DNA of 64,000 nt, taken from an uncultured bacterium. Its GTDB lineage: Bacteria; Hydrothermota; UBA3072. The DNA lies in assembly GCA_964556365.1 (NCBI GenBank), contig CAZKVT010000004.1, positions 13,842 to 77,841 of the forward strand, in the 5' to 3' direction. The notes beneath the pieces were generated by a model. The model worked only from the letters and a program-made list of their open reading frames with translations. It ran no database searches and was not told the DNA's origin. Below, one piece after another: positions 9,160-64,000 of the stretch. The translations under genes and the position numbers were made by a program. Positions within the stretch are counted from its first letter, which is position 1; every line of letters starts with the position of its first letter.

Positions 9160-10890
<1,731 letters not shown>

Positions 10891-31533: not shown

Positions 31534-31549
31534 AGCACAAAGAAAAGCC

Positions 31550-31620
31550 AGTCCAAAGTCCAACGTCCAATGTTCAAAGTCAAAGCTAAATCCCGACCCC
31601 CAAATCCGAAATCCTAAATC
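31550..31620. repeat. Degenerate heptamer array (AGTCCAA-type followed by AAATCC-type units)
   Basis: agtccaaagtccaacgtccaatgttcaaagtcaaag then ctaaatcccgacccccaaatccgaaatcctaaatc. Confidence 0.8.
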
Positions 31621-31700
31621 AGCCGTTCAACTATTCAACAATTTAACTATGACCCTCTACCGGTAAAAGTCATTATTGAACATTTAACAGGAGGTATATT

Positions 31701-32303: not shown

Positions 32304-32332
32304 TATTCCAAATTAATCTTATCCAAAGATAC

Positions 32333-32377
32333 CTAACTTTACACTTTTGTCCCGGACAAAAGTGTAAAGTTAGGGGA
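32333..32377. repeat. 45-bp palindromic element, copy 1
   Basis: Identical to 33280-33324; an inverted repeat with arms ctaactttacacttttgt / acaaaagtgtaaagttag. Confidence 0.9.
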
Positions 32378-33236: not shown

Positions 33237-33279
33237 AATTAATTGTACTTAATTATCGCCTTTTGTCAAATAATGCATT

Positions 33280-33324
33280 CTAACTTTACACTTTTGTCCC
33301 GGACAAAAGTGTAAAGTTAGGGGT
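33280..33324. repeat. 45-bp palindromic element, copy 2
   Basis: Identical to 32333-32377. Confidence 0.9.
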
Positions 33325-34456: not shown

Positions 34457-34482
34457 TTATTCTAACACAAAGAACACAGATC

Positions 34483-34519
34483 AGTCCAACGTCCAAAGTC
34501 TATAGTCCAAAGTCAGAAC
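34483..34519. repeat. Degenerate heptamer array (AGTCCAA-type)
   Basis: agtccaacgtccaaagtctatagtccaaagtcagaac. Confidence 0.8.
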
Positions 34520-34706
34520 TAAAACTTATTTCTCACACAAAGGCACAAAGAACGCTAAGTTTTTTTCCTATTTGACTATTTTTTAATTTGACCATTTAAC
34601 TGATTCGAAGAAGCACAACCTGGTACCAAATATCTAATAGTGCAACAAATCTACACTGACAAACACGGTTTTTTTATTTATTTTCCATTAATTCTTAAAT
34701 TTCCGC

Positions 34707-38648: not shown

Positions 38649-41600
38649 ATGTTTTTAATAATATTATTGGGAACTGTATTGAATGTTTACACAAACGATG
38701 TGGTGGTTAAAAGAGCTGATACCACTATTACTCCTACCATAGGTATGGAATTAAAGGATATCGATACAGTCATAGTTGGAGATAGTTCTAAAGCAGAGAT
38801 TCTTTATTCCGACAGCACAACGCTTTACCTGGATGCGAATACCAGTATTAATACAAGAGGAGAGAAGAAAAGGTCTGTATTTCTTTCCTTTGGAAGAATC
38901 TGGGCAAAGGTCAAAAAGCTTGTGAAAGGCGAATCTCTGGAAGTTGTAACTCCTGTTTCTATTTCCGGTATTACAGGTACGGAGTTCGAACAATCTTTTA
39001 TCGCGAAAAAAGTAGAGTGTAAGATGATAGGAGGAAGTTTAAACTTCAAAGAAAAGGGGACCGGAAAAGAGACAAAGCTGGGAGAGGGTCAGATGGCCTC
39101 TATGGAAAAAGGAAAATCAGCAAAATTTGGAAAATTCAAAAGGGACCAGGTGAAACACTGGTATAAATGGACAAAAAACGACGCTGATTTTATCCTCAGT
39201 AAAATAAAACAAGCCTCTGACGATGGTGAGCATGGAGATGGCTTGATCTCTGACGATGGTGCGCATGGAGATGGCTTGATCTCTGACGATGGTGAGCATG
39301 GAAAGGTAGCACTTCTTGTCTCTCAGGTAAAGGCAGTTGCCGGCAAATTGGGTTTAGTTGGAGAGTATAATAGCAAATTAGATAAATTTATGAAAGTTAA
39401 AGATCCTTCTATGCTCAAAGGCCTTTTTGCCCCTACCGAGACAGGTTTTCTTTATGCTATAAGCAGTGAAAATAAAGGTAAAAATACATTCATATTGTTG
39501 AAATGGCCTAAAATGGAAGGGGTTAAATCCTTTAACCTTTATAGGAAAGAGATACCGTCTATTTCTGTTTCTACGAAACCGATAAATTCAAAACCTATTC
39601 AACTTATGACTGACTGTGATGATATTAAGAAAATTATACCTGAAGGTTCCGAAGAATGGCAGGCCATTGTCAATATCCTTAACGGACCTCCAAAACTTAA
39701 ATTTAAAGCCGGCGTAAAAGGAAATATGATTAAGGGTTCTCCTATTGTAGCTCTTAAGAGCACGGGTAAAGATATGCTTGCCGCCGTTCCGACCGTTCCG
39801 CAGGTTGGGTTCGCTAATCTTGGTGCCTGTAATATTTCCTCTGTTTCGGATACCAGCAAGACTTATAGAGAATTACAGGCTCTTACAGGTAAATACTGGA
39901 AGGTTGGTGTTGTCATGGGACAGGCTTATGTTGATAATAATGTTGTTGTTGGTAAAAAATATATGTATGCAATAACACCCGCTAAAACACCCGCTAAGCG
40001 TAAGGGGGCAAGCATGGAAATTAAACCCATAGATACAGCCACGGTTATTGCCGGAACGGTTCTTCCTTTACCTCCTCCCTCGGGTGTTACTACTATTGCG
40101 GGTGATAACAAGGTTATGGTAAGATGGAATGAGATGGGAACCGCTTCGGGTTATGATGTTTATAGAAATGCTCTTACCTCGCTTTATATTAAGGTAAACG
40201 GAGCCGATATAGTAGAGAAATGTACTCTCGATTTAGAAGGAAATAAGATTTCTGAGAAAAACTGTTTTATAGATTTTATGCGCTGGGATGGATCGGGCTA
40301 TCCTGCAGAGCATGAAGTTGTGGCTCCTGACTCGATATATGGGCCATATAACGGAATAACTTACAGATATAAAGTTAGAGCTTATGATGCTCTTGGTAGA
40401 CCGGGTATGTTCAGTTCGAATGTTCCCACACTTCCCGAGGATAAAACACCGCCGGCTGTGCCTTATGGAATTACCGTCGAAGCTTATCCTGACGGCTTAC
40501 AGCCGAAATGGTATCAGGTTACTCATGATGAATTAGGACACGTGGAATTGTCGGGTATACAGGGCTATAAGGTTTATCGTTTTAACTCCGCGGATTCTTT
40601 GGCTGATAGTATTATGATTAATCCTATGATTCCTGATACGTTTGGAGCTTTCCCTTTCTTTAAGGATACGGACCCGGCGATTTTCTCCGCGTATGGAGAA
40701 AAAACATACTGGTACAGGGTTAGAAGTATCGATAACGAAGGTAATATAAGCGGTCTTTCTCCTTCAGCAGGAAACAATTTACCGGATACAACACCTCCGA
40801 CCCCTCCGCGCGATTTAGTGGCAAAGAGTCATGCAGACCATATTGCATTAACCTGGGAAAAACCGAATCCTGTTCCGTCCGATCTTGCGGGTTATAATAT
40901 ATATAGAGGGGTTTGCGGAGGAGATTCTGTATGTGTTGAGTATGAACAACAAAAGGCAACAACCCATATGCCGACGGGTGATCCAAGATGTACAAAATGG
41001 GAATGGCAACCTTATCCCACGCACCTTGTGGGAAATAGAGATCATCCCGATAGTCTTAAATATAATGATTTCACTGTTCCGCCCGGTTCTCCTATCTGTT
41101 ACAGATATACTATAAAAGCTTATGATAGGAGTCAGAATCTAAGCGATACCTCAAAGAGTGTTTGTCAGAAACTAAGAGAAGAAACACCTCCCGCTCCACC
41201 CGTTATAGCAGGGCTTAAAGCGAGAGACAGATCGATAAAAGTCGAGTGGGTTTCTTCCCCTGTTCAGGATTTATTTGGATTTATGGTTTATAGAGCGGAG
41301 AAAGAAAGTGGTCATTACAAGAGAGTAAGTGATACGCTTATATTCCCTGAAAAGATAGATTGCAAAGATATCCCGGCTACGAATGTATGGGCGGCTGATT
41401 CTGTATTTTCATTTGTCGATACAACCGTACAGGAAAAGAAGGTGTATTGGTATAAAATAAAAGCCGCGGATTACGGTGGAAATATAGGAGAAGCTTCTGT
41501 TCCGATAGAAACGTATACATATAATATCGGGCCTCCGCCTACACCAAAGAATCTTCAGGTTACTCAGCCTTCAGGTAAATGCGCTTTACTTATAGAATGG

Positions 41601-45882: not shown

Positions 45883-45908
45883 GAGGTCAGTAACACAGGC
45901 ATAGCAAA

Positions 45909-45947
45909 GTTAAATAGTTGAATAGTTGAATTGTCCACCCAACCCAT
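45909..45947. repeat. Degenerate 8-mer array (TAGTTGAA-type)
   Basis: gttaaatagttgaatagttgaattgtccacccaacccat. Confidence 0.6.
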
Positions 45948-47778: not shown

Positions 47779-49233
47779 TTATTCTTTTATCCTGTACAAT
47801 ATAAACTCGGCCCGTCTGTTTTTGATTCTGCCTGCTTCTGTGTTGTTGGTCGCTATAGGATTTGTTTCTCCGTAACCTTCTATGCTGATTTTTTCCGGAA
47901 GTATGCCTCGTCCTATCAGATATTTTTTTACGCTTTCTGCCCTTTTCTCCGATAGCTTCTGGTTGGCTTCGTAGGTTCCCAGGGAGCAGGTATGTCCGAT
48001 AATCAGCAGACGAACATCTTTGTTGTCTCTTATAAGTTCGATAATTCTATTTAATATGCTGAGCGCTCTCGGGGTAAGGTCGGCTCTATTTAAAGGAAAT
48101 CTTATGCTTATTCCTTCTACCTGGTCTTTAATTTCTTCGAAATTATCTATTATCCTTACAGAATCTGCAGCTGTCACAGGCTTTTTTTGTTCTTCTATTT
48201 TACTTAGTTCTATAGTGTAAAGATTTTTACTTGTTCCTCCTTTTACCGCCATCGCGATTTCTTTGTCTTTATATCCCGCAGCGGAAATAAATGAAGTGTA
48301 AATTCCGGGTTCCAGTTCTAAGGAATGAATGTTTTTTTCAAAAGAAGATGCTTGAATGGTATCTCCTTTCATGCTGGTTATTGTTGTGTATCCTTTTACA
48401 GGTTCTCTGTTTTCTTTATCTATAAGTTCGATTGATACAGGGAATTTTTTTACTAATTTTTCAACTGTCTCCTTCATATCCATTAATTTATAGGATAGAT
48501 TAAGACTGACACGCGGAGAGAGTTCATCTTCCGAACCGAATAGTTCTAATTTATTCAAAGCCATTGTGCCTTTTACAAGTTCATTCTGATATTCTATGCC
48601 AACGTTCGCGTCTCTGCCGTCCGTTTCCACAATAAAAGCTAAATTATTGGGGAAGGTTACTTTTGTCCCTCCGAAAAGACCGACAGCCCAGTTTTCATGA
48701 TTCTCGTCGAAGAAAATGTCGGTATTGGGAACGTAACTTTTCGGTCCGTACCCTACAAATCTTCCCCTGCCTATCCCTCCGGTCAATTCAAAACTTTTAC
48801 CAAATTTTTTTGTTCCGACGATATATGCTGAGGCAATTTCCGGAGGTCTATCCTCATAATCTTCATCATTAAAGGTTTCTTCCGAACCCGCGGGAGAAAT
48901 GTACTGGTTGATAGCGATCTCCGCGAGTCCTATGGCAAGACCGGGAGCACTTTCGTTCTCGGCGAGAATCTGGTAAGACAAGTCCATGGCAAAATCGACG
49001 CCGTCGTACCACTTTACGGCAATGCCGAATTTATTATACGAGAAATCTATTCCTATATTAGGATCGAATTTAACGTCCGTTACATCCATGACCGGATAGC
49101 TCGAACTCACATTGACGTAAAGCCCCTGAGTAAAATTGGCTGTAGGCATATCTATATAAGCTTCTCTTTTCATTTGGAAAGCATTAACCGCAATTGATAC
49201 TACAAATAATAAAGCAAAAAATAAATTTTTCAT
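47779..49233 (-). CDS. OmpA-family protein: unknown N-terminal domain plus a C-terminal peptidoglycan-binding OmpA-like domain (paralog A)
   Basis: Signal peptide; OmpA_C motifs (LLIIGHTCSLGTYEANQKLSEKRAESVKKYL ... NRRAEF); AAGGGGGTGA RBS. Confidence 0.75.
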   Translation of the reverse strand: MKNLFFALLFVVSIAVNAFQMKREAYIDMPTANFTQGLYVNVSSSYPVMDVTDVKFDPNIGIDFSYNKFGIAVKWYDGVDFAMDLSYQILAENESAPGLAIGLAEIAINQYISPAGSEETFNDEDYEDRPPEIASAYIVGTKKFGKSFELTGGIGRGRFVGYGPKSYVPNTDIFFDENHENWAVGLFGGTKVTFPNNLAFIVETDGRDANVGIEYQNELVKGTMALNKLELFGSEDELSPRVSLNLSYKLMDMKETVEKLVKKFPVSIELIDKENREPVKGYTTITSMKGDTIQASSFEKNIHSLELEPGIYTSFISAAGYKDKEIAMAVKGGTSKNLYTIELSKIEEQKKPVTAADSVRIIDNFEEIKDQVEGISIRFPLNRADLTPRALSILNRIIELIRDNKDVRLLIIGHTCSLGTYEANQKLSEKRAESVKKYLIGRGILPEKISIEGYGETNPIATNNTEAGRIKNRRAEFILYRIKE

Positions 49234-49260
49234 AGTTTATCACCCCCTTATACAAACAAT

Positions 49261-49288
49261 TTTATAGAGGATATGTCTTTTTGTCAAC
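49261..49288 (-). promoter_or_regulatory. Sigma70-type promoter (TTGACA-16-TATAAA on the minus strand) for OmpA paralog A
   Basis: -35 complement tgtcaa at 49283-49288; -10 complement tttata at 49261-49266. Confidence 0.4.
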
Positions 49289-49657
49289 CTAGATTAGAAT
49301 TTTTTTTGAAAAAAACCCATTTTACCGCAGAGACAAAAAGAACGCAGAAAAAAATTTTTAAGCCACGAAACACACTAAATCCCGCTACTCCTTTTGAATG
49401 TGTGTTTTAAAAAAAACACTAAAATAATGCTAATTCGATAATCGCGGCTGGGAAACCGCTCCCACATTTTTCTTTTTATTGTAGGAAGGATTTCTCTACC
49501 CTGTGGAATAAGAACTCAACATACAATGACTTCTATTATATTTGGAAAGTGCTGAATAAAAACGTAGGGTTGGGGTTTATTCCCAACAATCTATGTGCGA
49601 GGGATGAACCCCCGCGTTACTAATTTACGAATTTCCTGACTTGAAGAATCTATAAAG

Positions 49658-51115
49658 CTATTCTCTCGACCTTTTTACTATGAGTTCAGCTCTTCTGTTT
49701 CTTATTCTGCCTGCTTCCGTGCTGTTGTCCGCGAGAGGTTTTGTTTCTCCGTAAGCTTCCGTGCTGATTTTTTCAGCGGGTATGCCTCGTCCTATAAGAT
49801 ATTCTTTGACGTTTCCTGCTCTTTTCTCGGATAGCTTTTGGTTGAATTCATAGCTTCCGATATCGCAGGTATGTCCTATAATTAGTAGATTAATGCCTTT
49901 ATCGTTTCCTATTAGTTCGACTATTCTATCTGAGATGCCGTATGCTCTGGGGGTAAGTTTGAACTCTCCTAAGGGGAATTTTATGCTTATTCCTTCTACC
50001 TGGTCTTTAATTTCCTCGAAATTATCTATTATCCTTATGGAATCTTCAGCTTTTACAGGCTTTTTGGGTTCTTCTATCTTGTTTAGCTCTATAGTGTAAA
50101 AGTTTTTACTCGTTCCTCCTTTAACCGTCATCTCTATTTCTTTATTTCTATATCCTGCGGCTGTAATGAATGAAGTGTAAAGCCCCGGTTCCAGTTCGAA
50201 GGAATGAATGTTTTTTTCGAAAGAAGATGCTTGAATGGTATCTCCTTTTATGCTGGTTGTTGTTGTGTATCCTTTTACAGGTTCTCTGCTTTTTTTGTCT
50301 ATCAATTCAATCGCGACGGGAAATTCTTTCTTTTCTATCTCTTTAACCCTTTCCTGAAGGTTCGTCATCTTGTAGGATAGATTAAGACTAACACGAGGAG
50401 AGAGTTCATTTTCCGAACTGAAAAGTTCGAGTTTATTTAAAGCCAATGTGCCTTTTACAAGTTCATTCTGATATTCTATTCCAACATTCGCGTCTCTGCC
50501 GTCCGTTTCCACAATAAAAGCTAAATTATTCGGGAAGGTTACTTTTGTTCCTCCGAAAAGACCGACAGCCCAGTTTTCATGGTTTTCGTCGAAGAAAATG
50601 TCGGTATTGGGAATATAACTTCTTGGTCCGTAACCGACGAATCTGCCTCTGCCTATCCCTCCGGTCAATTCAAAACTTTTCCCCATCTTTTTTGTTCCTA
50701 CGATGTATGCCGATGCAATCTCCGGGGGTCTATCCGTATAGTTTTCATCGTTGAAAACATCCTCGGAGCCCGCGGGAGAAACATATTTACTGTTGGATAG
50801 TTCTGCGATTCCTATGGCAAGACCGGGAACGCTTTCGCTTTCCGCGAGAATCTGGTAAGATAGGTCCATTGCAAAGTCTATCCCGTCGTACCACTTTACC
50901 GCCATCCCAAATTTGTTATAAGAAAAATCTATTCCTATGTTAGGATCGAATTTCACGTCATCCACATCTTTAATCGGATAACTCGAACTCACGTTAACAT
51001 AAAGCCCCTGGGTAAAATTAGCTGTAGGCATATCTATATAAGCTTCTCTTTTCATTTGGAAAGCATTAACCGCAATTGATACTACAAATAATAAAGCAAA
51101 AAATAAATTTTTCAT
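49658..51115 (-). CDS. OmpA-family protein, paralog B (tandem duplicate of 47779-49233)
   Basis: Identical first 47 aa and high identity throughout to paralog A at protein and DNA level; OmpA_C motifs (LLIIGHTCDIGSYEFNQKLSEKRAGNVKEYL ... NRRAEL). Confidence 0.75.
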   Translation of the reverse strand: MKNLFFALLFVVSIAVNAFQMKREAYIDMPTANFTQGLYVNVSSSYPIKDVDDVKFDPNIGIDFSYNKFGMAVKWYDGIDFAMDLSYQILAESESVPGLAIGIAELSNSKYVSPAGSEDVFNDENYTDRPPEIASAYIVGTKKMGKSFELTGGIGRGRFVGYGPRSYIPNTDIFFDENHENWAVGLFGGTKVTFPNNLAFIVETDGRDANVGIEYQNELVKGTLALNKLELFSSENELSPRVSLNLSYKMTNLQERVKEIEKKEFPVAIELIDKKSREPVKGYTTTTSIKGDTIQASSFEKNIHSFELEPGLYTSFITAAGYRNKEIEMTVKGGTSKNFYTIELNKIEEPKKPVKAEDSIRIIDNFEEIKDQVEGISIKFPLGEFKLTPRAYGISDRIVELIGNDKGINLLIIGHTCDIGSYEFNQKLSEKRAGNVKEYLIGRGIPAEKISTEAYGETKPLADNSTEAGRIRNRRAELIVKRSRE

Positions 51116-51142
51116 AGTTTATCACCCCCTTATACAAACAAT

Positions 51143-51169
51143 TTTATAGAGGATATGTCTTTTTGTCAA
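51143..51169 (-). promoter_or_regulatory. Duplicated copy of the OmpA-paralog promoter (TTGACA-16-TATAAA on the minus strand)
   Basis: The same 60-bp upstream sequence as 49234-49290 (atcacccccttatacaaacaattttatagaggatatgtctttttgtcaacct). Confidence 0.4.
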
Positions 51170-51252
51170 CCTAAATTAGCGTTTTTTTAAAAAAACCTAA
51201 TTTCACCGAGGAGATACAGGGAAACAGGTAGATGTGTAAATGGGTAAAAAAA

Positions 51253-51330
51253 CAGTCAACCCATCTACCCATACACCCATCAACTCATTCACTACTTTAC
51301 CGATTCACTGCTTCCTGATTCGGAGAACCC
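51253..51330. repeat. Degenerate heptamer array (ACCCATC / CATTCAC / CTGATTC units)
   Basis: cccatctacccatacacccatcaactcattcactactttaccgattcactgcttcctgattcgg. Confidence 0.55.
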
Positions 51331-51336
51331 GATATC

Positions 51337-51365
51337 CGATATCTAAAAAAATCCCCTTGACAAAT
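51337..51365 (+). promoter_or_regulatory. Conserved promoter module (A-tract + CCCCTTGACAAA -35 element), copy 1
   Basis: ccgatatctaaaaaaatccccttgacaaa is near-identical to 52856-52886. A TATATT -10-like hexamer follows ~16 nt after TTGACA. Confidence 0.4.
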
Positions 51366-51428
51366 TTGGAAAAATGATTATATTACTTTATATAACAAAG
51401 TTCTTTGGAAAAACAAAAGGAGGGAACA

Positions 51429-52697
51429 ATGAAAAAATTAGTTATTTTAATGTTATTTGCAATAGTAGTTTTCGCGCAGGAAGCAGTGACAAAGGTCAAT
51501 CTCGATCGTAGAGCCGAAAGTAATCTTGTTACTCTTTTCGAAAAATTGCCTCAGAATATCGAAGTATTTGTTACTTCTGACAGTATCTATATTATCGAGG
51601 CTGCTTATCCGGGAAGCAAGATAATAAAAAAGTTGACCGCTTCCGAATACCGAAGTCTGATTGTGAGAATCCCGTCCGAGAGGGTAATCCTCGAAGACGC
51701 GCAATTGCCTTATGTGATAGGGCAGACTATTCATGGAATCTCTCTTTATTCCTGGAGTATGCCTTTAGCTTTGGGGATGGATGGGGAAAGCGCTGTGTCT
51801 ATGGGGCTCTTAATGCCGCTTTTGTATTCCACCGGAAGCTATTTAGTTACTAAAAATATACGTGTTAGCGGCGGGGCTGCCTATGGCTCATTTTTGGGCG
51901 GTATCGAAGGAGCGTGCCATGGAGGTATGTTCTTTGAATCTGAGGAAGCCATTTTCCCGGTGAGCCTTGGGGAAAATGTTCTGGATTTTGCTTTAGCTCA
52001 GAAGATGGGGTTGACTTCAGGAATGTATCAGAGGAAGTTTAATCATTGTGCGTATGGTTATTACCATTACGCGGCTTTAAAAGCCTTAGTTCTTTCAGAT
52101 GATTGGGATGATTGGGGTAACACGGATGAGTTTTTGCAGGTTTCCACTTTGCTTTCTTTAGGTGAGGGATATACATCTCTTTTTCTTTCGAGGAATTCAG
52201 AAGACCTGACTTTAGGGGACGCTCTTTTTGAGCTTCGGGCCAGTTTGTTGGGCGCTGAAGCCCTACCTTTAATTCTCATGACTTATGATCTACATCGTGA
52301 GGAAGCTTCAGACGCGCGTATTTACGCGGCTCTTTCTTTGGTCGGGCACGGCGTAGGTTATTTGTTGGGAAACAAACTCAGCAGAGATTATGATCTCTCC
52401 GGTTCCGGAGGTGTGATGATCTGGCTGCTTCCGTATCTCGCGCATGGTGCAACGGCGGCTATTATGGCGAAGACTGATAGCGAAGGGCTTTGGAATTCTT
52501 ATCCTGCTATATTCTTGTCGATGGATGTTATTATGACTTACGCGTACTATAAGGCTTTATCCAAAAAGCCCTTAAAGATGGGAAAGGCGGATGCGCCCCA
52601 TTTTAATATGGCATTAAATCCTATGAGTTTAATATGTAAAGATAAGAATAAAACCTTTGAAAACATGCCTTTCTTGATGTTTTCATATGAATTTTAA
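51429..52697 (+). CDS. Hypothetical secreted/membrane protein rich in Gly/Ala/Leu, 422 aa
   Basis: Signal peptide MKKLVILMLFAIVVFAQEA. The ATG at 51429 has an AAGGAGGG RBS; the track uses a TTG at 51405. Several hydrophobic segments; no known domain recognised. Confidence 0.45.
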   Translation: MKKLVILMLFAIVVFAQEAVTKVNLDRRAESNLVTLFEKLPQNIEVFVTSDSIYIIEAAYPGSKIIKKLTASEYRSLIVRIPSERVILEDAQLPYVIGQTIHGISLYSWSMPLALGMDGESAVSMGLLMPLLYSTGSYLVTKNIRVSGGAAYGSFLGGIEGACHGGMFFESEEAIFPVSLGENVLDFALAQKMGLTSGMYQRKFNHCAYGYYHYAALKALVLSDDWDDWGNTDEFLQVSTLLSLGEGYTSLFLSRNSEDLTLGDALFELRASLLGAEALPLILMTYDLHREEASDARIYAALSLVGHGVGYLLGNKLSRDYDLSGSGGVMIWLLPYLAHGATAAIMAKTDSEGLWNSYPAIFLSMDVIMTYAYYKALSKKPLKMGKADAPHFNMALNPMSLICKDKNKTFENMPFLMFSYEF

Positions 52698-52747
52698 TTC
52701 TCAGACAGAAAAAGAAACTAATTATCAAGAAAGACACAGAGGATTTT

Positions 52748-52851
52748 AGTCCAGTGTCCAAAGTCCAATGTCTTTTCCATTTTTTTATATCTGGTCCCGT
52801 TGATATGTTCTAATTCATAATTCATAATTCAAACTTCAAAATTCTTAATCC
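52748..52851. repeat. Degenerate heptamer arrays (AGTCCAA-type, then TAATTCA-type) left of the AbiE cassette
   Basis: tagtccagtgtccaaagtccaatgtc then ctaattcataattcataattcaaacttcaaaattcttaatcc. Confidence 0.8.
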
Positions 52852-52855
52852 TAAA

Positions 52856-52886
52856 CCCGGTATCTAAAAAATTCCCCTTGACAAAG
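52856..52886 (+). promoter_or_regulatory. Conserved promoter module (A-tract + CCCCTTGACAAA), copy 2, upstream of the AbiE cassette
   Basis: cccggtatctaaaaaattccccttgacaaag; compare 51337-51365. Confidence 0.4.
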
Positions 52887-52948
52887 CCCAATTAATTCAT
52901 AAACTAATAGTAATAATAATTATTACTTCTGGTTTATGGTAGGTGGAT

Positions 52949-53512
52949 ATGAAAAAAAATAGGGATTTTATTTTGAATTTATATAGTTCTAAAAGTACCG
53001 TTTTTACGATAGATGAAATAGCTTTGCTTTTGGGAGATTTAAATCGTGATAATCTGAAAGCGAGAATAAATTATTACGTTAAAAGAGGAAAATTGTTAAA
53101 TCTGAGAAAAGGGGTTTACGCGAAAAGAGGGTATAGCCCTTTAGAGCTCGCGGTTAAAATTTTTACTCCTTCTTATATCAGTTTAGAGACTATTCTGGAG
53201 AAGGGGGGAGTGATTTTCCAAAAATACGAAACTATCTTTGTTGTTTCTTATCTAAGCAGGAAAATCGAAGTTGACAGCCATAAATTACAATATCGTAGAA
53301 TAAAAGAGGAAATATTGATAAATAAAGAAGGGGTAGAATTAAAAAAAGGATATGCTATAGCAACAAAAGAGAGGGCATTTCTCGATGCTTTGTATTTATA
53401 TAAAGACTATTATTTTGACAATCTCGATATTTTAGATAAAGATGTTGTATTGAATATGGCTAACATTTATCAGTCGAAAACTCTTAAAGAAAAAGTCGAA
53501 GGGCTTATATAA
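52949..53512 (+). CDS. AbiEi-family antitoxin / transcriptional regulator (type IV TA)
   Basis: The PSYISLETILEKGG motif (AbiEi_4 family) and an N-terminal winged-helix-like region; separated by 1 nt from the downstream nucleotidyltransferase. The start may be the GTG two codons upstream. Confidence 0.6.
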   Translation: MKKNRDFILNLYSSKSTVFTIDEIALLLGDLNRDNLKARINYYVKRGKLLNLRKGVYAKRGYSPLELAVKIFTPSYISLETILEKGGVIFQKYETIFVVSYLSRKIEVDSHKLQYRRIKEEILINKEGVELKKGYAIATKERAFLDALYLYKDYYFDNLDILDKDVVLNMANIYQSKTLKEKVEGLI

Positions 53513-53513
53513 T

Positions 53514-54209
53514 ATGCTTAATATTCAGAAACATAAATATATACTGGTTCAAATTTTAAAAAGTGTCTATTCCGATAAAGGTGTTTCTTCAGTTATTGGT
53601 TTTAAAGGAGGAACCGCGGCGTATCTTTTTTACAATTTGCCAAGGTTTTCCGTCGATCTTGATTTTAATCTTTTGGAATCCGCAAGGAATGATTTAGTCT
53701 TTGAACGGATGAAAGATATTCTTAAAAGTTATGGTAATGTTAAAATCGCGAGAGAAAAGAGGTATACGATATTCTTTTTGCTTTCCTATGGGGAAGAGGC
53801 GACTAATATAAAAATAGAGATTTCAAAAAGAAAATTCCCCGATAATTATGAGGTAAAAAATTATCTCGGAATTCCAATGTTAGTAATGAAAAAGAGAGAT
53901 ATCTTTGCCCATAAGTTTGTTGCTTTCCTGGATAGAAAAAGTATAGCGAACAGAGATGCTTTTGATTTATGGTTTTTCTTTAATGGGAACTGGCAAATCA
54001 ATAAAGAAATAGTGAAATTAAGAACCGGTAGAAAGTTCGAAGATTATTTAAAAAATTGTATCGAAGCGGTAAAGGGGATAAATGATACATATATATTACA
54101 GGGTCTTGGTGAGGTGTTAGAAGAGGAGCAAAAAAACTGGGTAAAAAACAATCTCAAAAAAGACTTGATCTTTTTAATGAGGAATTATCTTGAATCTAAT
54201 GTTCAATAA
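53514..54209 (+). CDS. AbiEii/AbiGii-family nucleotidyltransferase toxin
   Basis: The FKGGTAAYLFYNLPRFSVDLDFN motif matches the GGTAL ... RFSEDLD nucleotidyltransferase signature of AbiEii. Confidence 0.7.
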   Translation: MLNIQKHKYILVQILKSVYSDKGVSSVIGFKGGTAAYLFYNLPRFSVDLDFNLLESARNDLVFERMKDILKSYGNVKIAREKRYTIFFLLSYGEEATNIKIEISKRKFPDNYEVKNYLGIPMLVMKKRDIFAHKFVAFLDRKSIANRDAFDLWFFFNGNWQINKEIVKLRTGRKFEDYLKNCIEAVKGINDTYILQGLGEVLEEEQKNWVKNNLKKDLIFLMRNYLESNVQ

Positions 54210-54288
54210 CGTCCAAGTCCGATGTCTTTTCCGACCCAACGACCCCACGATCTAACGAACCAACGAATCAGTCCAATGTCTTTAACCC
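54209..54288. repeat. Degenerate heptamer array (GTCCAA / CCAACGA units) right of the AbiE cassette
   Basis: acgtccaagtccgatgtcttttccgacccaacgaccccacgatctaacgaaccaacgaatcagtccaatgtctttaaccc. Confidence 0.8.
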
Positions 54289-54458
54289 AAAAAAGACAAA
54301 GTCTTAATCCGCATCCCGGAAATTTAAGGGTCTGAATATCGATTGTTTTAAACATCCGATAATATCTGAACTCTTAAGAATCAAAAATGACTATTAAGAC
54401 TTTGTTAGTTTAAAGGTCTTTAGTTATTCTATAAACCTTGTATTTCAGAAAATACTTG

Positions 54459-54668
54459 CTACTGACTTAAACCGTCTTTTTTTACGTTTTCAGCTTTAGG
54501 TCCTTTTTCACCCTGAACGATTTCAAATTCGACTTCATCTCCCTCGTTGAGTGTTACAAGACCGCCTGTAAGCGATGAAGAGTGTACAAAAACGTCGTCT
54601 TTGCCTTCTACTTCTATAAATCCGAAGCTTTTCATGTCATTGAACCATTTTACTTTACCTTTTTCCAT
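54459..54668 (-). CDS. cspA: Cold-shock protein (CspA family)
   Basis: 69 aa; [15 protein letters not shown] ... DVFVH RNP motifs. Confidence 0.9.
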
Positions 54669-54703
54669 TGCTAAAACCTCCTGTGGTTTTAAAAAAATTA
54701 AAT

Positions 54704-55132
54704 TTAAAGAATCTCGAGTAGTTCTATTTCAAAGTTAAGATTTTTTCCGGCGAGAGGATGATTCGCATCCATGATTACTTCAGATTCTGAAGAGCCGGTT
54801 ACTGTAACTATGAAAGGTTGATGTTTATCTGATTCTAATCTAAACTGCTGTCCTACTTGCGGGTCTGAATCTTCTGGTAAATCTTTTCTGGCTACATTCA
54901 TAACCAGTTCCTCATGATGTTCTCCGTAAGCTTCTTTCGAGGGGATTTTAACAGCCTTGGATTCTCCGGGACTCATACCGATTACTGCCTGTTCAAAACC
55001 GGGGATTATTTTTTCGGTATTAAGTGTAAATTCGAATGGGTTAGTCTCGTCTGTTTTTTCTATAACAGTGTTGTTATCAAGAGTTAAAGTATAATTAACT
55101 TTAACTTTATCTCCTTCTTTTACTTTTGCCAT
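54704..55132 (-). CDS. slyD: FKBP-type peptidyl-prolyl cis-trans isomerase (SlyD-like)
   Basis: [19 protein letters not shown] ... [21 protein letters not shown] ... [15 protein letters not shown]; GGGAGG RBS. Confidence 0.8.
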
Positions 55133-55392
55133 TATTTTCCTCCCATTTTATTATTAGGATTTCCAAAAGATTTTTCCAAAGGGATTTCTTCTAAACATTA
55201 CAAATTTATATTTTACCGAAATACACTAAATCCCTATAAAGCGATTCCAGAAAAAATTAGGGACATTTTTAGTAGATACTATTTTAGTAGATACTACATT
55301 AATAACAACCCTACACCATTAATATAAGTGTTTTTAGCTATTTGTCAACCCACCCCGCCTTAAAACACTCATATGGAGAACACAGAGAACTT

Positions 55393-55429
55393 TAGTCCAA
55401 TGTCCAAAGTCCAGAGTCCAAAGTCAAAA
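55393..55429. repeat. Degenerate heptamer array (AGTCCAA-type)
   Basis: tagtccaatgtccaaagtccagagtccaaagtcaaaa. Confidence 0.8.
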
Positions 55430-55680
55430 TTTAAAACTCAAACTTGCTTTTATACTAATCCTTGAGTCCCAAACTTTAACAAACCACAGATTCCACAAGA
55501 TTAGCTCAATATTTTTCTTAACCGCTAAATACACGGGGAAACCAACTTAGTGAAGGTACTAAATCAGGAAAAAAGAATTAATCGTACGGTAAAGTACTTT
55601 ATTCCCAGTGATACATTGACAAATTTAGCGTTTTGTTTATGTTAAACGATGAGTAAAACGAATAGGGTTGATCTGTTTAT

Positions 55681-56901
55681 ATGGAAAAATCTATAAAAAT
55701 ATTATCGGAATATTTCTATCCTGAACCGGCAGCTACAGCAAAATTAATGTCTCAGCTTGCAAGCGAGCTGAGTAAAAAAGGATTTAACGTGGAAGTTTAT
55801 ACCCGCAGGCCTCATCGTAGATCAAAAAGCGCACAGAAACTTCCCGCTAAAGAGATTCGTAATGGTGTTACAGTTAACCGATTGTCATGCGTTCAATTAA
55901 ATAAAGAAAATTTATTATTTAGAACAATCAACTGGTTCTCGTTTTCTTTTAGTCTGCTTATTAGTATGTCTTTAAAAAGCAGTAAGGATATCTTGCTTAT
56001 CGTAACCAATCCCCCGATTTTACCTTTTGTAGGACTTTTTTTTAATATTATAAGAAGTCAACGATTTATTCCTATAATATATGATGTTTATCCTGATATT
56101 GCGGTCGCGCTTGAATTGGTGGAAAAAAACGGATTTTTTGTAGAATTATGGAAAAGATTAAATAATGTACTATATCGAAGAGCTTCCGGGATTGTTGTTA
56201 TTGGTAATCAAATGAAGCGAACGATAGTAAAGAGTGCCGGAGTGAACTCTTTTGAATCAAAAATCGAAGTGATATATAACTGGGAAGACCCGGATTTTAT
56301 AAAACCTCTTAAGAAAGAAGAAAATGCTTTTGCGAAGGAAAACGGATATAATGAGGTTTTGACCGTTCTATATTCCGGAAATTTCGGATTATACAATGAT
56401 TTATGTACTATAATTTACGCCGCGGAAAAGATTCGGAAATTACCTGTAAAATTCGTTTTTATAGGTGACGGAGCCCAGAAGGAAAAATTAAAGAAAATTG
56501 TTCGAGATAAAGATTTAAAAAATGTCGATTTTCATTCTTACCAGCCACATAGCAGGCTTCCTGAGACCTTAACATGCGCGGATATCTCTGTGGTATCGGA
56601 GGATAAAAGAGTAAGTGGGCTTTGTTCTTCAAGTAAGTTCTATAGTTCTCTCGCGAGCGGGCAGGCGGTTCTCGCTCGGGTGAACAAAGAGTCAGACATA
56701 GCCGATACAATACGGAGTAGCAATTGTGGCTTTATAGTTAATCAAGGTGATGTTAATCAGGTGGTAAATCATTTGAAATTCTGGCTCGACAACAGGGATG
56801 AATTAAAGAAAATGGGGAAGAGAGCCCGGAAGTATTTTGAGGAACATTATACTATGAATCATTCCATAGAACGATATGTTAAGATGTTGAAAGAGTTGTG
56901 A
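55681..56901 (+). CDS. Family 4 glycosyltransferase (WcaI/WbuB-like)
   Basis: GT-B fold; the C-terminal EX7E-like region and overall similarity to WcaI-type colanic-acid/LPS glycosyltransferases. Confidence 0.7.
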   Translation: MEKSIKILSEYFYPEPAATAKLMSQLASELSKKGFNVEVYTRRPHRRSKSAQKLPAKEIRNGVTVNRLSCVQLNKENLLFRTINWFSFSFSLLISMSLKSSKDILLIVTNPPILPFVGLFFNIIRSQRFIPIIYDVYPDIAVALELVEKNGFFVELWKRLNNVLYRRASGIVVIGNQMKRTIVKSAGVNSFESKIEVIYNWEDPDFIKPLKKEENAFAKENGYNEVLTVLYSGNFGLYNDLCTIIYAAEKIRKLPVKFVFIGDGAQKEKLKKIVRDKDLKNVDFHSYQPHSRLPETLTCADISVVSEDKRVSGLCSSSKFYSSLASGQAVLARVNKESDIADTIRSSNCGFIVNQGDVNQVVNHLKFWLDNRDELKKMGKRARKYFEEHYTMNHSIERYVKMLKEL

Positions 56902-56918
56902 GAGGGCGCAAACTGCTT

Positions 56919-56990
56919 TAGTCCAATGTCAATAATCGTTAGATCGTTAGGTCGTTGGATTGTTAGATCGTTAAAAAATCCGAATCAACT
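56919..56990. repeat. Degenerate arrays (AGTCCAA, then GATCGTTAG 9-mers)
   Basis: tagtccaatgtcaataatcgttagatcgttaggtcgttggattgttagatcgttaaaaaatccgaatcaac. Confidence 0.8.
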
Positions 56991-57040
56991 AAAAATTGCC
57001 ACAGATTAACACGTATATGCGCGGAGGTTTTTTGTTGTTT

Positions 57041-57076
57041 TGACTGATGACTCGTGACTGTTGACTAACGACTCGG
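57041..57076. repeat. TGACT-type degenerate array
   Basis: tgactgatgactcgtgactgttgactaacgactcgg. Confidence 0.6.
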
Positions 57077-57168
57077 TTATATATTTGACCATTCAACTTA
57101 GGTTCAAAGAATCACAACCTGGGACCCATAGCTTAGCAGTCCGTGTTTTTGACGCATGTAGGTGTAAA

Positions 57169-58407
57169 TTAAAGAAGGCTCCAGGGTACCGCGAGTATTT
57201 TATCTCCGAACTTTTTAGCTTCCTTGCCGGCATGAATAAGAATAGCGCTTTTAGTATCCGGGTATTCGCCCATAAAATATCTGAGACCTTTTGTATCTCC
57301 ATAATTGGGAGAATCGGTTAACTTTACTTCAATCGCGATTTTCTCCTTGCCGTATTCAATTACAAAATCGACTTCTTTTTGGTTTATTTCTCTGTAGTAA
57401 TGGATTTTACCTTTTGGGACCATCAGTTCACAAAGCACGTTTAAGTGCAAAAAAATCAAATTTTCAAAAAATCCCCCCAATTCTCTTGCTTTTTTAAGGC
57501 TATCTGAATTGTAGTAACCGGAAAGAAAAACCGCTAAAGCGGGATCTACCCAGTAAACTTTAGGAGATTTTATTATTCTTTTTGTTCTATTAGGAAAGAA
57601 AGGCGTGATTTTTGTAATTATATGTCCGATTTCCATTAAGTTAATATACCTGTATACAGATGGTTGGCTTACTCCGGAATCTCTGGCAATCTCGGTTTGG
57701 TTTATTAGATTTCCTGTTCTCAAAGCGAGCATTTCCATGACTTTTCTAAAATCGGTTAGCGACGATATATTGGAAATATTTCTCAAGTCTCTTTCCATAT
57801 AAGTGGCGACATAGCCTTCCCACCATCTTAGAATATTTTCTGAGTTTTTCATATACATAACCCGCGGCATAAACCCTTTAAGCATAAAGGAGATAGGGTC
57901 TATTGGTTTATAATTCTTTTCTTTAGGAAATTTACCCTTAAAGAGATCTACGAACCACTGAGGTCGTGATTCTTCCGCCATTTCTCTTCGAACCATAGGA
58001 TTAAGAATTAAATAAGCGGCTCTTCCGGCGAGAGTTTCAGAGATTTTATTCATTAATAACATATTGGCCGAACCGGATAATATGTACTTGCCTTTACCTT
58101 TATCTACATTTAACTTTATAGCTTCTATCAAACCTTTTTCTTTCTGGACTTCATCGATTATGAGTTTATTGTAATTCGATATTAAGCCTACAGGGTCTTC
58201 TTCGGCTTGTTCCAGGACATCGAAATTGTCGAGAGTTAGATATTTCCAATCGTCGGACGAAAACTCATTTTGTAAAATAGTACTTTTCCCAACCTGTCTT
58301 GCCCCCGTTAGAATAACAACAGGAATTTCTTCGATAACGGTTTTTAGAATATTACCAAGATATCTATCCTTGTATTTCCATTTAGACTGTGAATAATATT
58401 TATTCAT
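57169..58407 (-). CDS. AAA+ ATPase (AAA_14 + DUF4143 family)
   Basis: Walker A VVILTGARQVGKST; the DUF4143 C-terminal region (YWVDPAL ... GGFFENL). The M at 58407 gives the typical ~37-aa lead before the P-loop. Confidence 0.65.
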   Translation of the reverse strand: MNKYYSQSKWKYKDRYLGNILKTVIEEIPVVILTGARQVGKSTILQNEFSSDDWKYLTLDNFDVLEQAEEDPVGLISNYNKLIIDEVQKEKGLIEAIKLNVDKGKGKYILSGSANMLLMNKISETLAGRAAYLILNPMVRREMAEESRPQWFVDLFKGKFPKEKNYKPIDPISFMLKGFMPRVMYMKNSENILRWWEGYVATYMERDLRNISNISSLTDFRKVMEMLALRTGNLINQTEIARDSGVSQPSVYRYINLMEIGHIITKITPFFPNRTKRIIKSPKVYWVDPALAVFLSGYYNSDSLKKARELGGFFENLIFLHLNVLCELMVPKGKIHYYREINQKEVDFVIEYGKEKIAIEVKLTDSPNYGDTKGLRYFMGEYPDTKSAILIHAGKEAKKFGDKILAVPWSLL

Positions 58408-58719
58408 TACCTGAATAATAATACAAATATTTAATTTGTCAAGTATTTGAATCATCAGGCGGATGATTAGTTATTAGTTAATTTGCAAATTAGTTTATTA
58501 GTAAAAGTCTCGACCCAACTGAAGAATTGAATCGCAGATTATCACAAGATTTTTTTATTCTTTACCGTTAGCAGTCAGCTGAAAGTTATTTTGTCAGATT
58601 ATAGAAAATATAATTTTTGTTTTGATTTTTTTGAACACATATACGCTTTTACGCTTATACGCATTTACTTTGCGTAGAAATTACCTCCTAACTCTCTAAC
58701 CCTCTAATTTTCGATTTAT

Positions 58720-60857: not shown

Positions 60858-60911
60858 CCCAATAAACCCAACGAACTCAACGAAACCAATAAATCCAATC
60901 AACCAATTAAC
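60858..60911. repeat. Degenerate heptamer array (CCAAYGA / CCAATMA units)
   Basis: cccaataaacccaacgaactcaacgaaaccaataaatccaatcaaccaattaac. Confidence 0.7.
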
Positions 60912-60953
60912 TTTCTCCGTTCTTGGACTCGGAACTCGGCACCCAGAACCAAA

Positions 60954-62340
<1,387 letters not shown>

Positions 62341-62361
62341 TTTGTCTCTCTAAATTTATAA

Positions 62362-62390
62362 CTAAATCCTAAATCCAAAATCCTAAATCC
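62362..62390. repeat. Heptamer array (TAAATCC-type), inverted relative to 61933-61963
   Basis: ctaaatcctaaatccaaaatcctaaatcc is the reverse complement of ggatttaggattttggatttaggatttag. Confidence 0.85.
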
Positions 62391-62400
62391 TGCTAATACG

Positions 62401-63470: not shown

Positions 63471-64000
63471 TCAATTTAACAACCACTTGGTTATGGGTAT
63501 AACCTTAATTTTACCGTTATCGGTATCAATATTTTTTTCATCGTCTTCAGTAATTATTGTACTCTCTTTAAGTTTTAACTCTTTCATTCCTTCAATTAGT
63601 GCGGAAATCTCCCTTTTCTCGACTTTTTTATCCTGAAGAGAAGTTGAAACCTGAATTAACAAAGTATTACCTTTTTTTCTTCGCACATAAAAATCAATCT
63701 CTTTCTCATTCCCGGTTTTATAATAGAAAATTTCTTCTTCTCTTCTTTTAAGTTCGAGGAAAACGAGGTTCTCAAAGTACTGTCCTCTATTCGCGGAGAA
63801 ACTAAATCCTATGCTATTACGCAAACCGTTATCGATAACATAAACCTTCTTGGGGTTCAGGTTTTGATTTTTTAATGAGTAATTATATCCTTTAATGACA
63901 AAAATAAGAAAACTCTCTTCCAAATAAGATAAATATTCCTTAACTGAATTAATATTTCCAATATTGGTTGCTCTTTTAAGACTGGAAAAGGTAAATAACG
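63471..64000 (-). CDS. AAA+ ATPase (DUF4143 family). This is the C-terminal portion; the N-terminus lies beyond the window end.
   Basis: The reading frame stays open past the TTG at 63923 to the window edge (…[35 protein letters not shown]…), matching the DUF4143 region of the 57169-58407 paralog class. Confidence 0.55.

Follow-up and report, generated by a model that had tools for sequence, protein, structure and literature searches.

Degenerate 7- to 9-nt tandem arrays between genes of an uncultured Hydrothermota bacterium: a dispersed modular repeat family found at junctions of gene gain, loss and replacement

In a 64-kb stretch of DNA from an uncultured bacterium of the Hydrothermota (contig CAZKVT010000004.1, positions 13,842 to 77,841; this whole stretch of 64,000 nt is called the window below), the spacers between genes contain degenerate tandem arrays of 7- to 9-nt units. 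These intergenic arrays are real and occur far above chance, and they are a dispersed modular repeat family, not the outcome of independent local slippage. Moreover, contigs of sister strains provide direct nucleotide-level evidence, which suggests that the arrays are the joints at which genes were lost, gained and replaced. They do not constitute a novel type of integron but are the form taken in this lineage by the known, STRR-like intergenic heptamer repeats or long simple sequence repeats (LSSRs).

Tandem Repeats Finder (TRF) was run on the whole window, and repeats with a period of 6 to 10 were taken as the array class. Twenty such arrays with a total of 615 nt were found in 6.5 kb of intergenic DNA, whereas 200 dinucleotide-preserving shuffles of the spacer DNA yielded a mean of 0.59 and a maximum of 4. 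The array density was 2.7/kb in intergenic versus 0.17/kb in coding DNA (15-fold), and arrays covered 8.2% of the intergenic versus 0.44% of the coding bases. Self-match peaks at lags of 7, 8 and 14 were confined to the spacers, and coding DNA gave the usual 3-nt signal. More than 12 unit families were distinguished in the window by TRF and repeat comparison. The degenerate 7- to 9-nt arrays that an initial annotation of this DNA had reported at 51.2 to 57.1 kb and at 31550, 34483, 45909, 60858, 61933 and 62362 were all recovered by TRF, which placed arrays as follows.

31550-31585 and 34483-34514: AGTCCAA arrays
45908-45931: AGTTGAAT array
52811-52849: TAATTCA, 5.6 copies
54232-54266: CGACCCAA, 4.4 copies
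55394-55429: AGTCCAA, 5.1 copies
56935-56973: ATCGTTAG, 4.9 copies
57040-57066: TTGACTG, 3.9 copies
60865-60911: arrays of 8- to 9-mers
61933-61963: GGATTTG, 4.4 copies
62362-62391: CTAAATC, 4.3 copies

Two motifs of the initial annotation were found again, namely, a repeated motif bounding the gene of a GT4-family glycosyltransferase (GT4) and a CACAGAG(A/G)A lead-in to the arrays. The former is the 14-mer TTTAGTCCAATGTC, which occurs exactly at 55391-55404 and 56917-56930 (the preceding C completes the 15-mer of the annotation); at 3 mismatches it gave 15 matches versus 8.3 expected, which is not above chance, and the motif is meaningful only at ≤2 mismatches. The lead-in, as CACAGAG(G/A)A plus TTTAGTCCA(G/A)TGTCC, is present at 52735-52759 and 55381-55405, and degenerate versions (CACAAAGAA) stand at 31536 and 34466. 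The proposed placement of the arrays did not hold. They are not specific to cassette boundaries, as, at a relaxed threshold, arrays were found in 19 of the 28 spacers in the window, among them the core-gene spacers adjoining metE, asd/thiD and tadA; the CACAGATT and CACAAAG elements that adjoin sat/cysC and asd are too short for TRF. Nor do most of the arrays lie directly upstream of start codons; they are found just after stop codons or upstream of promoters.

The arrays are built from families that recur in a modular fashion: CACRRAG, AGTCCAA, AAATCC, TTCAACTA, CGTTAG/AACCCAAC and CACAGATT followed by a T-run. These are strung into linkers of 100 to 250 nt that extend from a stop codon to the next promoter or lie between divergent promoters. 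The preferred order, a CACRRAG lead-in (for example, CACAGAG) followed by AGTCCAA, then AAATCC and then TTCAACTA/TTTAACTA, was seen at 31534-31660, 34457-34620, 52728, 55375 and 56905 and also at an unlinked locus in contig L066. Intergenic copies of the lead-in are sense oriented just after a stop codon in 16 of 17 cases, and the same is true for 16 of 18 AGTCCAA units; the CGTTAG family is found in both orientations relative to the upstream gene (54252, minus; 56937, plus). Outside the 51- to 64-kb region, the following elements illustrate the arrangement.

10891-10929, plus strand: CACAGATT element immediately behind the stop codon of sat/cysC, a core gene; 92% complementary to 15420-15458
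16679-16774, minus strand: CACAAAG-family elements (TCTCACACAAAGGCACAAAG...) just 3' of a minus-strand gene
22250-22278, minus strand: further CACAAAG-family copy, adjoining asd
31536-31650, plus strand: full composite filling an intercistronic spacer, with a CACAAAG lead-in, AGTCCAA (5 copies), AAATCC (3 copies) and TTCAACTA (3 copies)
34466-34553, plus strand: CACAAAG lead-in, AGTCCAA (4.6 copies), then TCTCACACAAAGGCACAAAGAAC, of which L011 has a copy (96% identity)

Copies of the same modules were found at many unlinked gene boundaries. The 39-nt element of CACAGATT plus T-run occurs three times in the window with 85 to 92% identity, and other modules of 26 to 50 nt recur as well. The sequences used for comparison were metagenome contigs throughout, and those of close relatives all came from one sediment series. 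Among them, L003 has a copy of the 76-nt module 57038-57113 at a different locus (96% identity), and in L004 the module set of 58465-58546 is located upstream of GT4. Two more distant loci of metagenome-assembled genomes, L011 and L012, were anchored on SlyD (75% and 71% identical to that of the window). They contain stretches of 19 to 46 nt that are 90 to 100% identical to the window, though the SlyD and AbiE proteins there are only 71 to 78% identical. Past the conserved slyD promoter, arrays do not keep their positions from genus to genus, L011 and L012 being syntenic; this argues for maintenance at the level of the family, with turnover of the individual arrays. In L011, the AbiE pair is preceded at the corresponding place by an array recognizably similar to the TAATTCA array, and a CGTTAG-array composite is also found 3' of that pair. 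The AGTCCAA-CGTTAG composite of 56916-56973 recurs at L066:9704-9739, and arrays of the AACCCAAC-type unit reach 223 nt in L060, a related contig whose GyrA is 88% identical to that of the window.

Sister-strain contigs were obtained by an exact CspA protein look-up (ten contigs) and, for more of them, by a scan for the lead-in-plus-array motif, and junctions were mapped by BLAST and junction inspection. The features concerned are as follows.

51227-51292, no strand: adjacent inverted arrays (TRF), GGTAAATG (2.8 copies) and ACCCATC(C) (4.2 copies), in the spacer that separates the divergent OmpA2 and 422-aa gene promoters
51429-52697, plus strand: gene of a 422-aa hypothetical protein with no Pfam match; variable unit, missing in L001 and L003; alleles 88 to 97% identical
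52735-52775, plus strand: lead-in CACAGAGGA, then an AGTCCAA-type array with AGTCCAATGTCTTT (52762-52775), the left-hand direct repeat flanking the AbiE segment, at its end
52811-52849, plus strand: TAATTCA array just upstream of the AbiE promoter (-35 at 52878)
52949-54209, plus strand: AbiEi-like and AbiEii toxin-antitoxin pair (Pfam AbiEii, 6.8e-19), 99.7 to 100% identical in all carrier strains
54210-54283, plus strand: composite of GTCCAAGTCCGATGTCTTTTCC, CGACCCAA (4.4 copies), which continues into CGATCTAACGAACCAACGA, and the right-hand direct repeat, AGTCCAATGTCTTT (54270-54283)
54459-55132, minus strand: cspA and slyD (FKBP-type), conserved anchor genes between variable units
55381-55429, plus strand: lead-in CACAGAGAA, then AGTCCAA (5.1 copies), between the divergent slyD and GT4 promoters; a different module set in L004 and L007
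55484-55505, plus strand: two CACAGATT-type units, right breakpoint of the L004/L007 module replacement
55681-56901, plus strand: GT4-family glycosyltransferase (Pfam), at least three allele groups
56916-56973, plus strand: CTTTAGTCCAATGTC, then the ATCGTTAG array (4.9 copies)
57000-57033, plus strand: CACAGATT-type element, then a T-run; dispersed family, also at 10891-10929 (plus), 15420-15458 (minus) and 58530-58566 (plus)
57038-57113, plus strand: TGACTNN array (AGTC-type on the minus strand) and TTGACCATTCAACTTAGGTTCAAAG module, in part conserved in L011
58466-58566, plus strand: ATTAGTTA array and CACAGATT element, site of a 109-nt indel
58642-58707, plus strand: TACGCTTT (3.4 copies) and CTAACCCT (2.5 copies) arrays (TRF), downstream of a second AbiE-like pair
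60865-60950, plus strand: AACCCAAC-type 8- to 9-mer array, then TTGGACT-type units

In L004, L007 and L068, which were assembled independently, the AbiE segment is missing; from one repeat to the other it spans 1,508 bp. Where the segment is present, the 14-nt direct repeat AGTCCAATGTCTTT stands at 52762-52775 and 54270-54283, whereas a single copy is found at the empty site; immediately after the stop codon of AbiEii there is a third, related copy, GTCCGATGTCTTTTCC. L001 lacks 49309-52748, that is, one OmpA paralogue and the 422-aa gene, and L003 lacks the 422-aa gene. Both contigs read ...GGTCCAATGTCCAAAGTCCAATGTC and then diverge, with their junctions after GTCCAATGTC, and four different sequences were found immediately 3' of GTCCAATGTC. 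The junctions of L001, L003, L004 and L068 are all located within 52735-52775. In L002 and L006, a different gene adjoins cspA and is joined at CGATCTAACGA (54247). A 109-nt indel at 58546, seen versus L001 and L002, lies between CAGATTA direct repeats. At a second locus, which encodes sugar-nucleotide genes, L066 and L069 differ from L070 in that one cassette with a 23S_rRNA_IVP (IVP) gene is replaced by an AGTCCAA-CGTTAG-AACCCAAC composite, and a second slot of this locus is occupied by a different IVP gene. The junctions carry direct repeats of 7 to 16 nt and lie inside array modules. Thus, when presence and absence were compared as proposed in the initial annotation, the AbiE pair, the 422-aa gene, one OmpA paralogue and the small IVP genes proved to be polymorphic between sister strains.

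The arrays also differ in unit number, by +1 to +3 units in steps of 7 to 8 nt (L004, L068, L008, L065, and L066 versus L067); the TAATTCA array at 52811-52849, for example, has one additional unit in L008 and L065. In aligned DNA, indels affected 1.5% of the array positions, 0.46% of other spacer positions and 0.02% of coding sequence (CDS) positions. Substitutions in aligned parts of the arrays amounted to 1.5%, versus 3.6% in CDS and a proportion of synonymous differences (pS) of 0.16 to 0.36 at adjacent synonymous sites. The AbiE cassette was not seen at a second locus in an exact-protein look-up with AbiEii, and the same kind of look-up with GT4 gave no match. The strict lead-in-plus-array motif was found on 7 contigs of the metagenome collection scanned, which represent 3 genomic sites; thus, the exact composite is low copy, and the scan is too strict for counting the family.

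As the identity patterns show, the cassettes have spread gene by gene between diverged strain backgrounds. The AbiE pair is 99.7 to 100% identical where neighboring genes are 84 to 95% identical, an IVP gene and both of its flanking arrays are 99.5 to 100% identical where gmd and the epimerase gene are 92% and 88% identical, respectively, and the second AbiE-like pair is 99.6 to 100% identical beside an epimerase gene of 87% identity. GT4 occurs in at least three allele groups within one population, which differ by 6 to 9% (pS, 0.16 to 0.20; proportion of nonsynonymous differences [pN], ~0.055); this diversity is typical of surface-polysaccharide genes. The spacers of GT4, 340 nt upstream and 220 nt downstream, are 99 to 100% identical between two of the allele groups. 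GT4 as a moving unit between its two CTTTAGTCCAATGTC copies was considered and rejected, as the 276 nt from the left copy to the start codon are 100% identical between allele groups whereas the gene differs by 8%.

Some arrays are paired as the arms of a stem. This was found for an IVP gene located between gmd and the epimerase gene, with the following parts.

61931-61959, no strand: (GGGATTT)n array, 3' arm of the stem in RNA sense
61972-62340, minus strand: 23S_rRNA_IVP/bAvd-like four-helix-bundle protein (PF05635, 2.4e-40), encoded by an open reading frame (ORF)
62364-62392, no strand: CTAAATC array, 5' arm of the stem in RNA sense

The two arms are 90% complementary over 29 nt, lie 404 nt apart and are paired in the minimum-free-energy (MFE) and centroid folds. 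Two more IVP ORFs (L066, 8119-8584; L070, 2428-2904) have arms of 30 and 31 nt at distances of 406 and 415 nt, which consist of entirely different units, GTTAGGAA/TTCCTAAC and AGTCCAA/TTGGACT. Each arm in these three cassettes is an array of four 7- to 8-nt units, and the sequences are unrelated between cassettes. Since complementarity is kept while the sequence differs, this amounts to covariation evidence for pairing. For the five members of the S23p/IVP family in contigs of this lineage, z scores of the flank duplex were -4.0, -6.6, -4.5, -2.2 and +0.5, compared with -2.0 to +1.5, mostly near 0, for 15 other genes used as a control; the fourth IVP gene (L066, 6583-6942) pairs weakly, and the fifth (L060, 18054-18419) has direct arrays. 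No IVP homologues were found in 40 control loci of other phyla, which were short and hence uninformative in this respect. In Coxiella, the 23S rRNA intervening sequence (IVS) has 428 nt and a 28-bp terminal stem whose loop encloses an S23p ORF; RNase III cleaves it, and it contains tandem GACAGAT heptamers whose number varies between strains (PMC4990558). In its anatomy, 61931-62392 agrees with this element; it is a 23S-IVS-like stem-loop around an S23p/IVP ORF, for which excision by RNase III would be predicted from this likeness. On the plus strand, (GGGATTT)4 at 61933-61963 also satisfies the G3N4 x4 pattern of a G-quadruplex, an idea that has been proposed for the GGGNATC repeats of Xanthomonas and Nostoc as well.

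A reading of the region as an integron with attC sites was rejected. Neither Pfam scans of the 49 window proteins nor the gene calls of related contigs revealed an integrase, a resolvase or a DDE transposase; a RAYT-like Y1_Tnp gene (32370-33236, minus strand) encodes the only enzyme of a mobile element, and a linked integrase or recombinase was thus not found, this gene with its own REP excepted. No attC-like palindromes or inverted repeats were present at boundaries in 51.1-57.2 kb. Array-bearing spacers folded no better than shuffles (z, -1.5 to +1.6), the AGTCCAA tracts being if anything less structured, and the same applied to 51227-51292 (z, -0.97), which is flanked by promoters at 51169-51141 (minus) and 51357-51384 (plus). 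Strong sigma-70-like promoter matches (10 to 11 of 12) precede the 422-aa gene, AbiE, slyD, GT4 and OmpA, so that the units have their own promoters, and they are oriented in both directions. The junctions are located at different positions and in different unit families, with no single crossover site. From the cassette organization proposed in the initial annotation, the gene-sized polymorphic units with junctions in arrays therefore remain, whereas an integrase, an attC palindrome and a fixed crossover site were not found.

Other known elements were also considered as the source or function of the arrays. Within 32332-33321, the Y1_Tnp gene has an identical 42-nt REP-like hairpin on both sides, CCTAACTTTACACTTTTGTCC/GGACAAAAGTGTAAAGTTAGG, and a hairpin of REP-like design lies directly beside an array at L060:19613-19653. 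REP/RAYT was rejected as the array source, as the REP hairpin occurs only at 32337 and 33284 in the 64 kb and the arrays are nonpalindromic and unrelated in sequence. Intrinsic terminators were rejected because there were 19 terminator-like sites versus 14.3 ± 3.9 by chance and none at these gene ends, and Rho/rut-like polarity was rejected because C exceeded G downstream of the stop codon in only 15 of 29 regions. Rfam and tRNA scans of the window gave no match (no RNA family, no tRNA attachment site and no rRNA).

The arrays are not lineage specific. Arrays of the same kind, with units partly shared, were found in L060, L011, L012, L066 and L070 (up to 223 nt in L060), and heptamer arrays of 4 to 5 copies were found in control loci of unrelated phyla, namely, Nitrospirae, Geobacteraceae, a deltaproteobacterium and a cyanobacterium. 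One locus of an unrelated phylum uses the unit AAATCCG, which is also present in the window at 31602. In L025, L030, L031, L032 and L038, which are loci of Nitrospirae, Geobacteraceae and deltaproteobacterial genomes, the arrays are often adjacent inverted pairs, i.e., repeat-built hairpins, at densities similar to that of the window. Since the arrays occur in most spacers of the 64 kb, also next to core genes, and in other phyla, they are, as such, probably for the most part an ordinary genome-wide intergenic repeat. Intergenic heptamer tandem repeats of heterocystous cyanobacteria, the STRRs, have been known since about 1990. We know of no accepted function for intergenic heptamer repeats. 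LSSRs have units of 5 to 11 nt, with 7 nt as the mode, and a sporadic distribution; among them, the TAACTGA repeats of Beggiatoaceae, cyanobacteria and Bacteroidetes differ between strains in 7-nt steps and are suspected to have a role in rearrangements (PMC4679880). The GGGNATC repeats of Xanthomonas and Nostoc prefer four units, are located between co-oriented ORFs at ≤50 bp from stop codons and are mostly transcribed (PMC4692102). In light of these control loci and reports, the lineage-specific cassette system suggested in the initial annotation is not supported.

How could such arrays become joints? The dispersed modules might offer shared homology or slippage points for recombination and in this way permit cassette-like turnover with no dedicated integrase, an explanation to which we give an even chance. 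Slippage and unequal exchange would create the arrays themselves and keep them changing. Being common to unrelated gene boundaries, they would provide a foothold for ordinary recombination, be it RecA dependent, on the longer identical linkers, or through short homology or slipped events at the units. Whole transcription units, such as toxin-antitoxin (TA) pairs, IVP genes and surface-polysaccharide genes, could in this way be deleted, inserted and exchanged between strains like cassettes. Several observations weigh against recombination between modules as the explanation. Only some 6 to 8 independent events are available, and the junctions of L001 and L003 rest on one or two metagenome assemblies in a comparison that consists of metagenome contigs throughout. 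Since breakpoints are tolerated in spacers only, junctions within arrays could be a coincidence. The identity boundaries of allelic replacements (GT4, slyD, gmd and the epimerase gene) coincide, within a few tens of nucleotides, with start and stop codons and not with arrays; as they track gene ends, crossovers could equally lie inside genes, and use of the linkers versus use of the gene ends is not settled. The association with accessory genes envisaged in the initial annotation is partial: within the 64 kb, arrays occur in 15 of 20 spacers adjoining accessory genes and are about 2-fold denser next to accessory or hypothetical genes (5.5/kb versus 2.7/kb next to core genes, with small numbers), but 3 of the 7 spacers adjoining core genes carry arrays too. 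The more distant relatives L061 and L062 have no arrays in their <1.4 kb of spacer DNA. Finally, as unit families are conserved from genus to genus, there may be a sequence-specific factor or function for which recombination between modules does not account.

The arrays could also be neutral filler, that is, by-products of slippage in unconstrained spacers, with genes turning over by unrelated mechanisms whose breaks are tolerated only there. The degeneracy of the arrays, their variable unit number and their presence in most long spacers whatever the neighbors would agree with this, as would the unremarkable local folding, the lack of a consistent strand or C>G polarity, the absence of sequence conservation at syntenic positions of L011 and L012 beyond the slyD promoter and Mrazek's slippage model for 7-nt units. 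However, the same units, the same module order and near-identical stretches of 19 to 76 nt were found at unlinked loci and in other genera, and this sharing across loci and genera argues that the arrays are not the product of independent slippage. Moreover, the arrays have fewer substitutions than CDS and far fewer than adjacent synonymous sites, and the direct repeats at the junctions are the array units themselves. We therefore regard neutral filler as unlikely, though deserving of serious attention. A function at the RNA level, with a secondary role at cassette junctions, is in our view quite unlikely. In this case, the arrays would be transcribed tracts in 3' untranslated or intercistronic regions that serve in binding of S1, Csp or CsrA-type proteins, in Rho loading, in processing or as RNase III stem arms. 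Lead-in and AGTCCAA copies that are sense oriented after stop codons speak for it, and so do whole intercistronic spacers made of arrays (31534-31700; L060, 17970-18640), canonical terminators that do not exceed chance, the three IVP ORFs bracketed by complementary arms of unrelated sequence, which match the RNase III-processed, heptamer-bearing IVS elements, and the fact that published heptamer arrays are mostly transcribed (PMC4692102). On the other hand, arrays between divergent promoters (51227-51292 and 55391-55429) should stay untranscribed from those promoters, the C>G polarity after stop codons is not consistent, the CGTTAG family occurs in both orientations and there are no Rfam matches.

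A dedicated lineage-specific system, in which an unrecognized site-specific recombinase uses AGTCCAATGTC-type units as tandem, integron-like attachment sites, is very unlikely. It would account for the five co-oriented AGTCCAA(TGTC) elements that separate four units at 52.7 to 57.0 kb, for the 14-nt direct repeat at the occupied AbiE site with one copy at the empty site, for the four different continuations right after GTCCAATGTC and for near-identical cassettes in diverged backgrounds; speculatively, the nearby multicopy AAA_14/DUF4143 genes and the Y1 transposase could be candidate enzymes. Against this stand the lack of an integrase, resolvase or DDE enzyme in the window or in the gene calls of related contigs and the junctions in different unit families and positions. 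Likewise, the units are oriented both ways, with promoters of their own, and the housekeeping-type genes cspA and slyD are among them, the strict lead-in-plus-array motif is present at only 3 genomic sites, the AbiE cassette was never found at a second locus, and Y1_Tnp has its own, unrelated REP hairpins. A broader idea is a long shot: the arrays might be address labels of a cassette exchange, common to this lineage, that is recombinase independent or driven by an unrecognized enzyme. Selfish ORFs (S23p/IVP, TA, PIN and DUF433) would travel with array arms, inverted arms would form IVS-like stem-loops that are cut from operon transcripts, direct arms would mediate insertion and excision, and the solitary arrays and array hairpins in many phyla would be footprints. 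If it were true, it would provide a mechanistic origin for bacterial heptamer repeats.

New here is population-level evidence that links heptamer repeats to the turnover of gene cassettes for defense, surface polysaccharides and small selfish ORFs. If module-based turnover of this kind were genome-wide, it would offer an uncultured phylum cassette-like plasticity at low cost and without an integrase. S23p ORFs in heptamer-built stems between protein-coding genes, furthermore, link two old puzzles, rRNA intervening sequences and heptamer repeats.

With regard to its wider setting, the window encodes a GyrA whose closest named relative is 76% identical (labeled candidate division WOR-3, now Caldifarciminota at NCBI), the next tier being at ~54%. 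According to Pfam, 1 to 30 kb is housekeeping DNA (plsX, fab genes, acpP, etfBA, gyrA, sat/cysC, metE, asd, thiD, ftsK, suhB and tadA), and 46 to 64 kb is a surface-polysaccharide and defense island. The island contains Bac_transf, two OmpA paralogues, the 422-aa orphan, the AbiEi/AbiEii pair, cspA, slyD and GT4, followed by AAA_14/DUF4143 ATPases, the second AbiE-like pair, the epimerase, the 23S_rRNA_IVP gene and gmd. Several AAA_14 plus DUF4143 ATPase genes are found across the island (57169-58455 and 63471-63923) and also in L056 (149-1423). The OmpA-family gene is tandemly duplicated, including promoter and leader (47779-49233 and 49658-51115, region 47779-51190; 76 to 88% identity), and single copy in L001. 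The AbiE promoter is separated from the start codon by a palindrome with 20-nt arms (52898-52938), probably the operator of AbiEi; in L011, 32 nt of it show 94% conservation. The slyD promoter and leader (55228-55353) are 87 to 88% conserved in L011 and L012, versus 71 to 75% identity of the SlyD protein; this region contains a perfect 15-nt repeat in two copies (55267-55296) and may be a regulatory leader. A conserved ORF of ~81 aa is located 3' of gyrA in the window (8918-9165), L060, L061 and L063. In L060 (12418-12840) it stands directly before the 258-aa/Bac_transf/OmpA genes, and from this gene order the 36.7-kb block 9166-45882 of the window (sat/cysC to response regulator) must be absent from, or elsewhere in, L060. 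A 33-nt tandem repeat (2.7 copies, 96% matches; 39215-39313) within a 1056-aa FecR-domain ORF is in frame, because 33 nt equal 11 codons. The 374-nt spacer upstream of ftsK (25206-25579) has neither arrays nor an Rfam match; it looks GC-richer and is possibly structured.

Compared with integron cassettes, including the Vibrio VCR super-integrons, the system described here has in common gene-sized units, a recurring repeat at the 3' end of the unit, presence/absence polymorphism at that place and TA modules. It differs in having no IntI, attI or Pc, in repeats that are tandem and unstructured, in units with their own promoters and mixed orientation and in the lack of a single crossover point. 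Mosaic intergenic repeat systems are known from Neisseria, whose NIMEs carry dRS3 and which also has "minimal mobile elements," and from Escherichia coli with its BIMEs. As in these systems, the spacers are mosaics of short dispersed modules common to many gene boundaries, with short repeats at the module junctions, surface-structure genes are involved and gene-sized exchange would proceed by homologous recombination. The module sequences, however, are unrelated to those of the mosaic systems and are tandem-periodic instead of palindromic, and no associated phage or recombinase is known. Short repeats dispersed in spacers, and a RAYT-like Y1_Tnp with REP in the window, are reminiscent of REP/RAYT, but the arrays are not hairpins and share no sequence with REP. 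The element at 61931-62392, like two or three more cassettes of related contigs, resembles the 23S rRNA IVS of Coxiella and Leptospira (PMC4990558) in its PF05635 ORF, its size of ~460 nt, its terminal stem of ~28 to 31 bp with the ORF in the loop and arms made of, or beside, tandem heptamers of variable number; also, it behaves as a selfish insert. Unlike the IVS, it lies between protein-coding sugar-nucleotide genes and not in helix 25 or 45 of 23S rRNA (the window has no rRNA), and its arms consist entirely of four 7- to 8-nt units. With STRRs and LSSRs the arrays share head-to-tail units of 7 to 9 nt, typically in 3 to 6 copies and with several families mixed per spacer, a strongly intergenic location, often ≤~50 nt from a stop codon and between co-oriented genes, and strain differences in steps of one unit. 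In contrast to those repeats, the arrays described here belong to a WOR-3 (Caldifarciminota)-like lineage, their copies are degenerate rather than perfect, the families make up composite linkers in which their order recurs, gene-sized presence/absence junctions are linked to the arrays by population data, and some of the arrays are paired as the arms of a stem.

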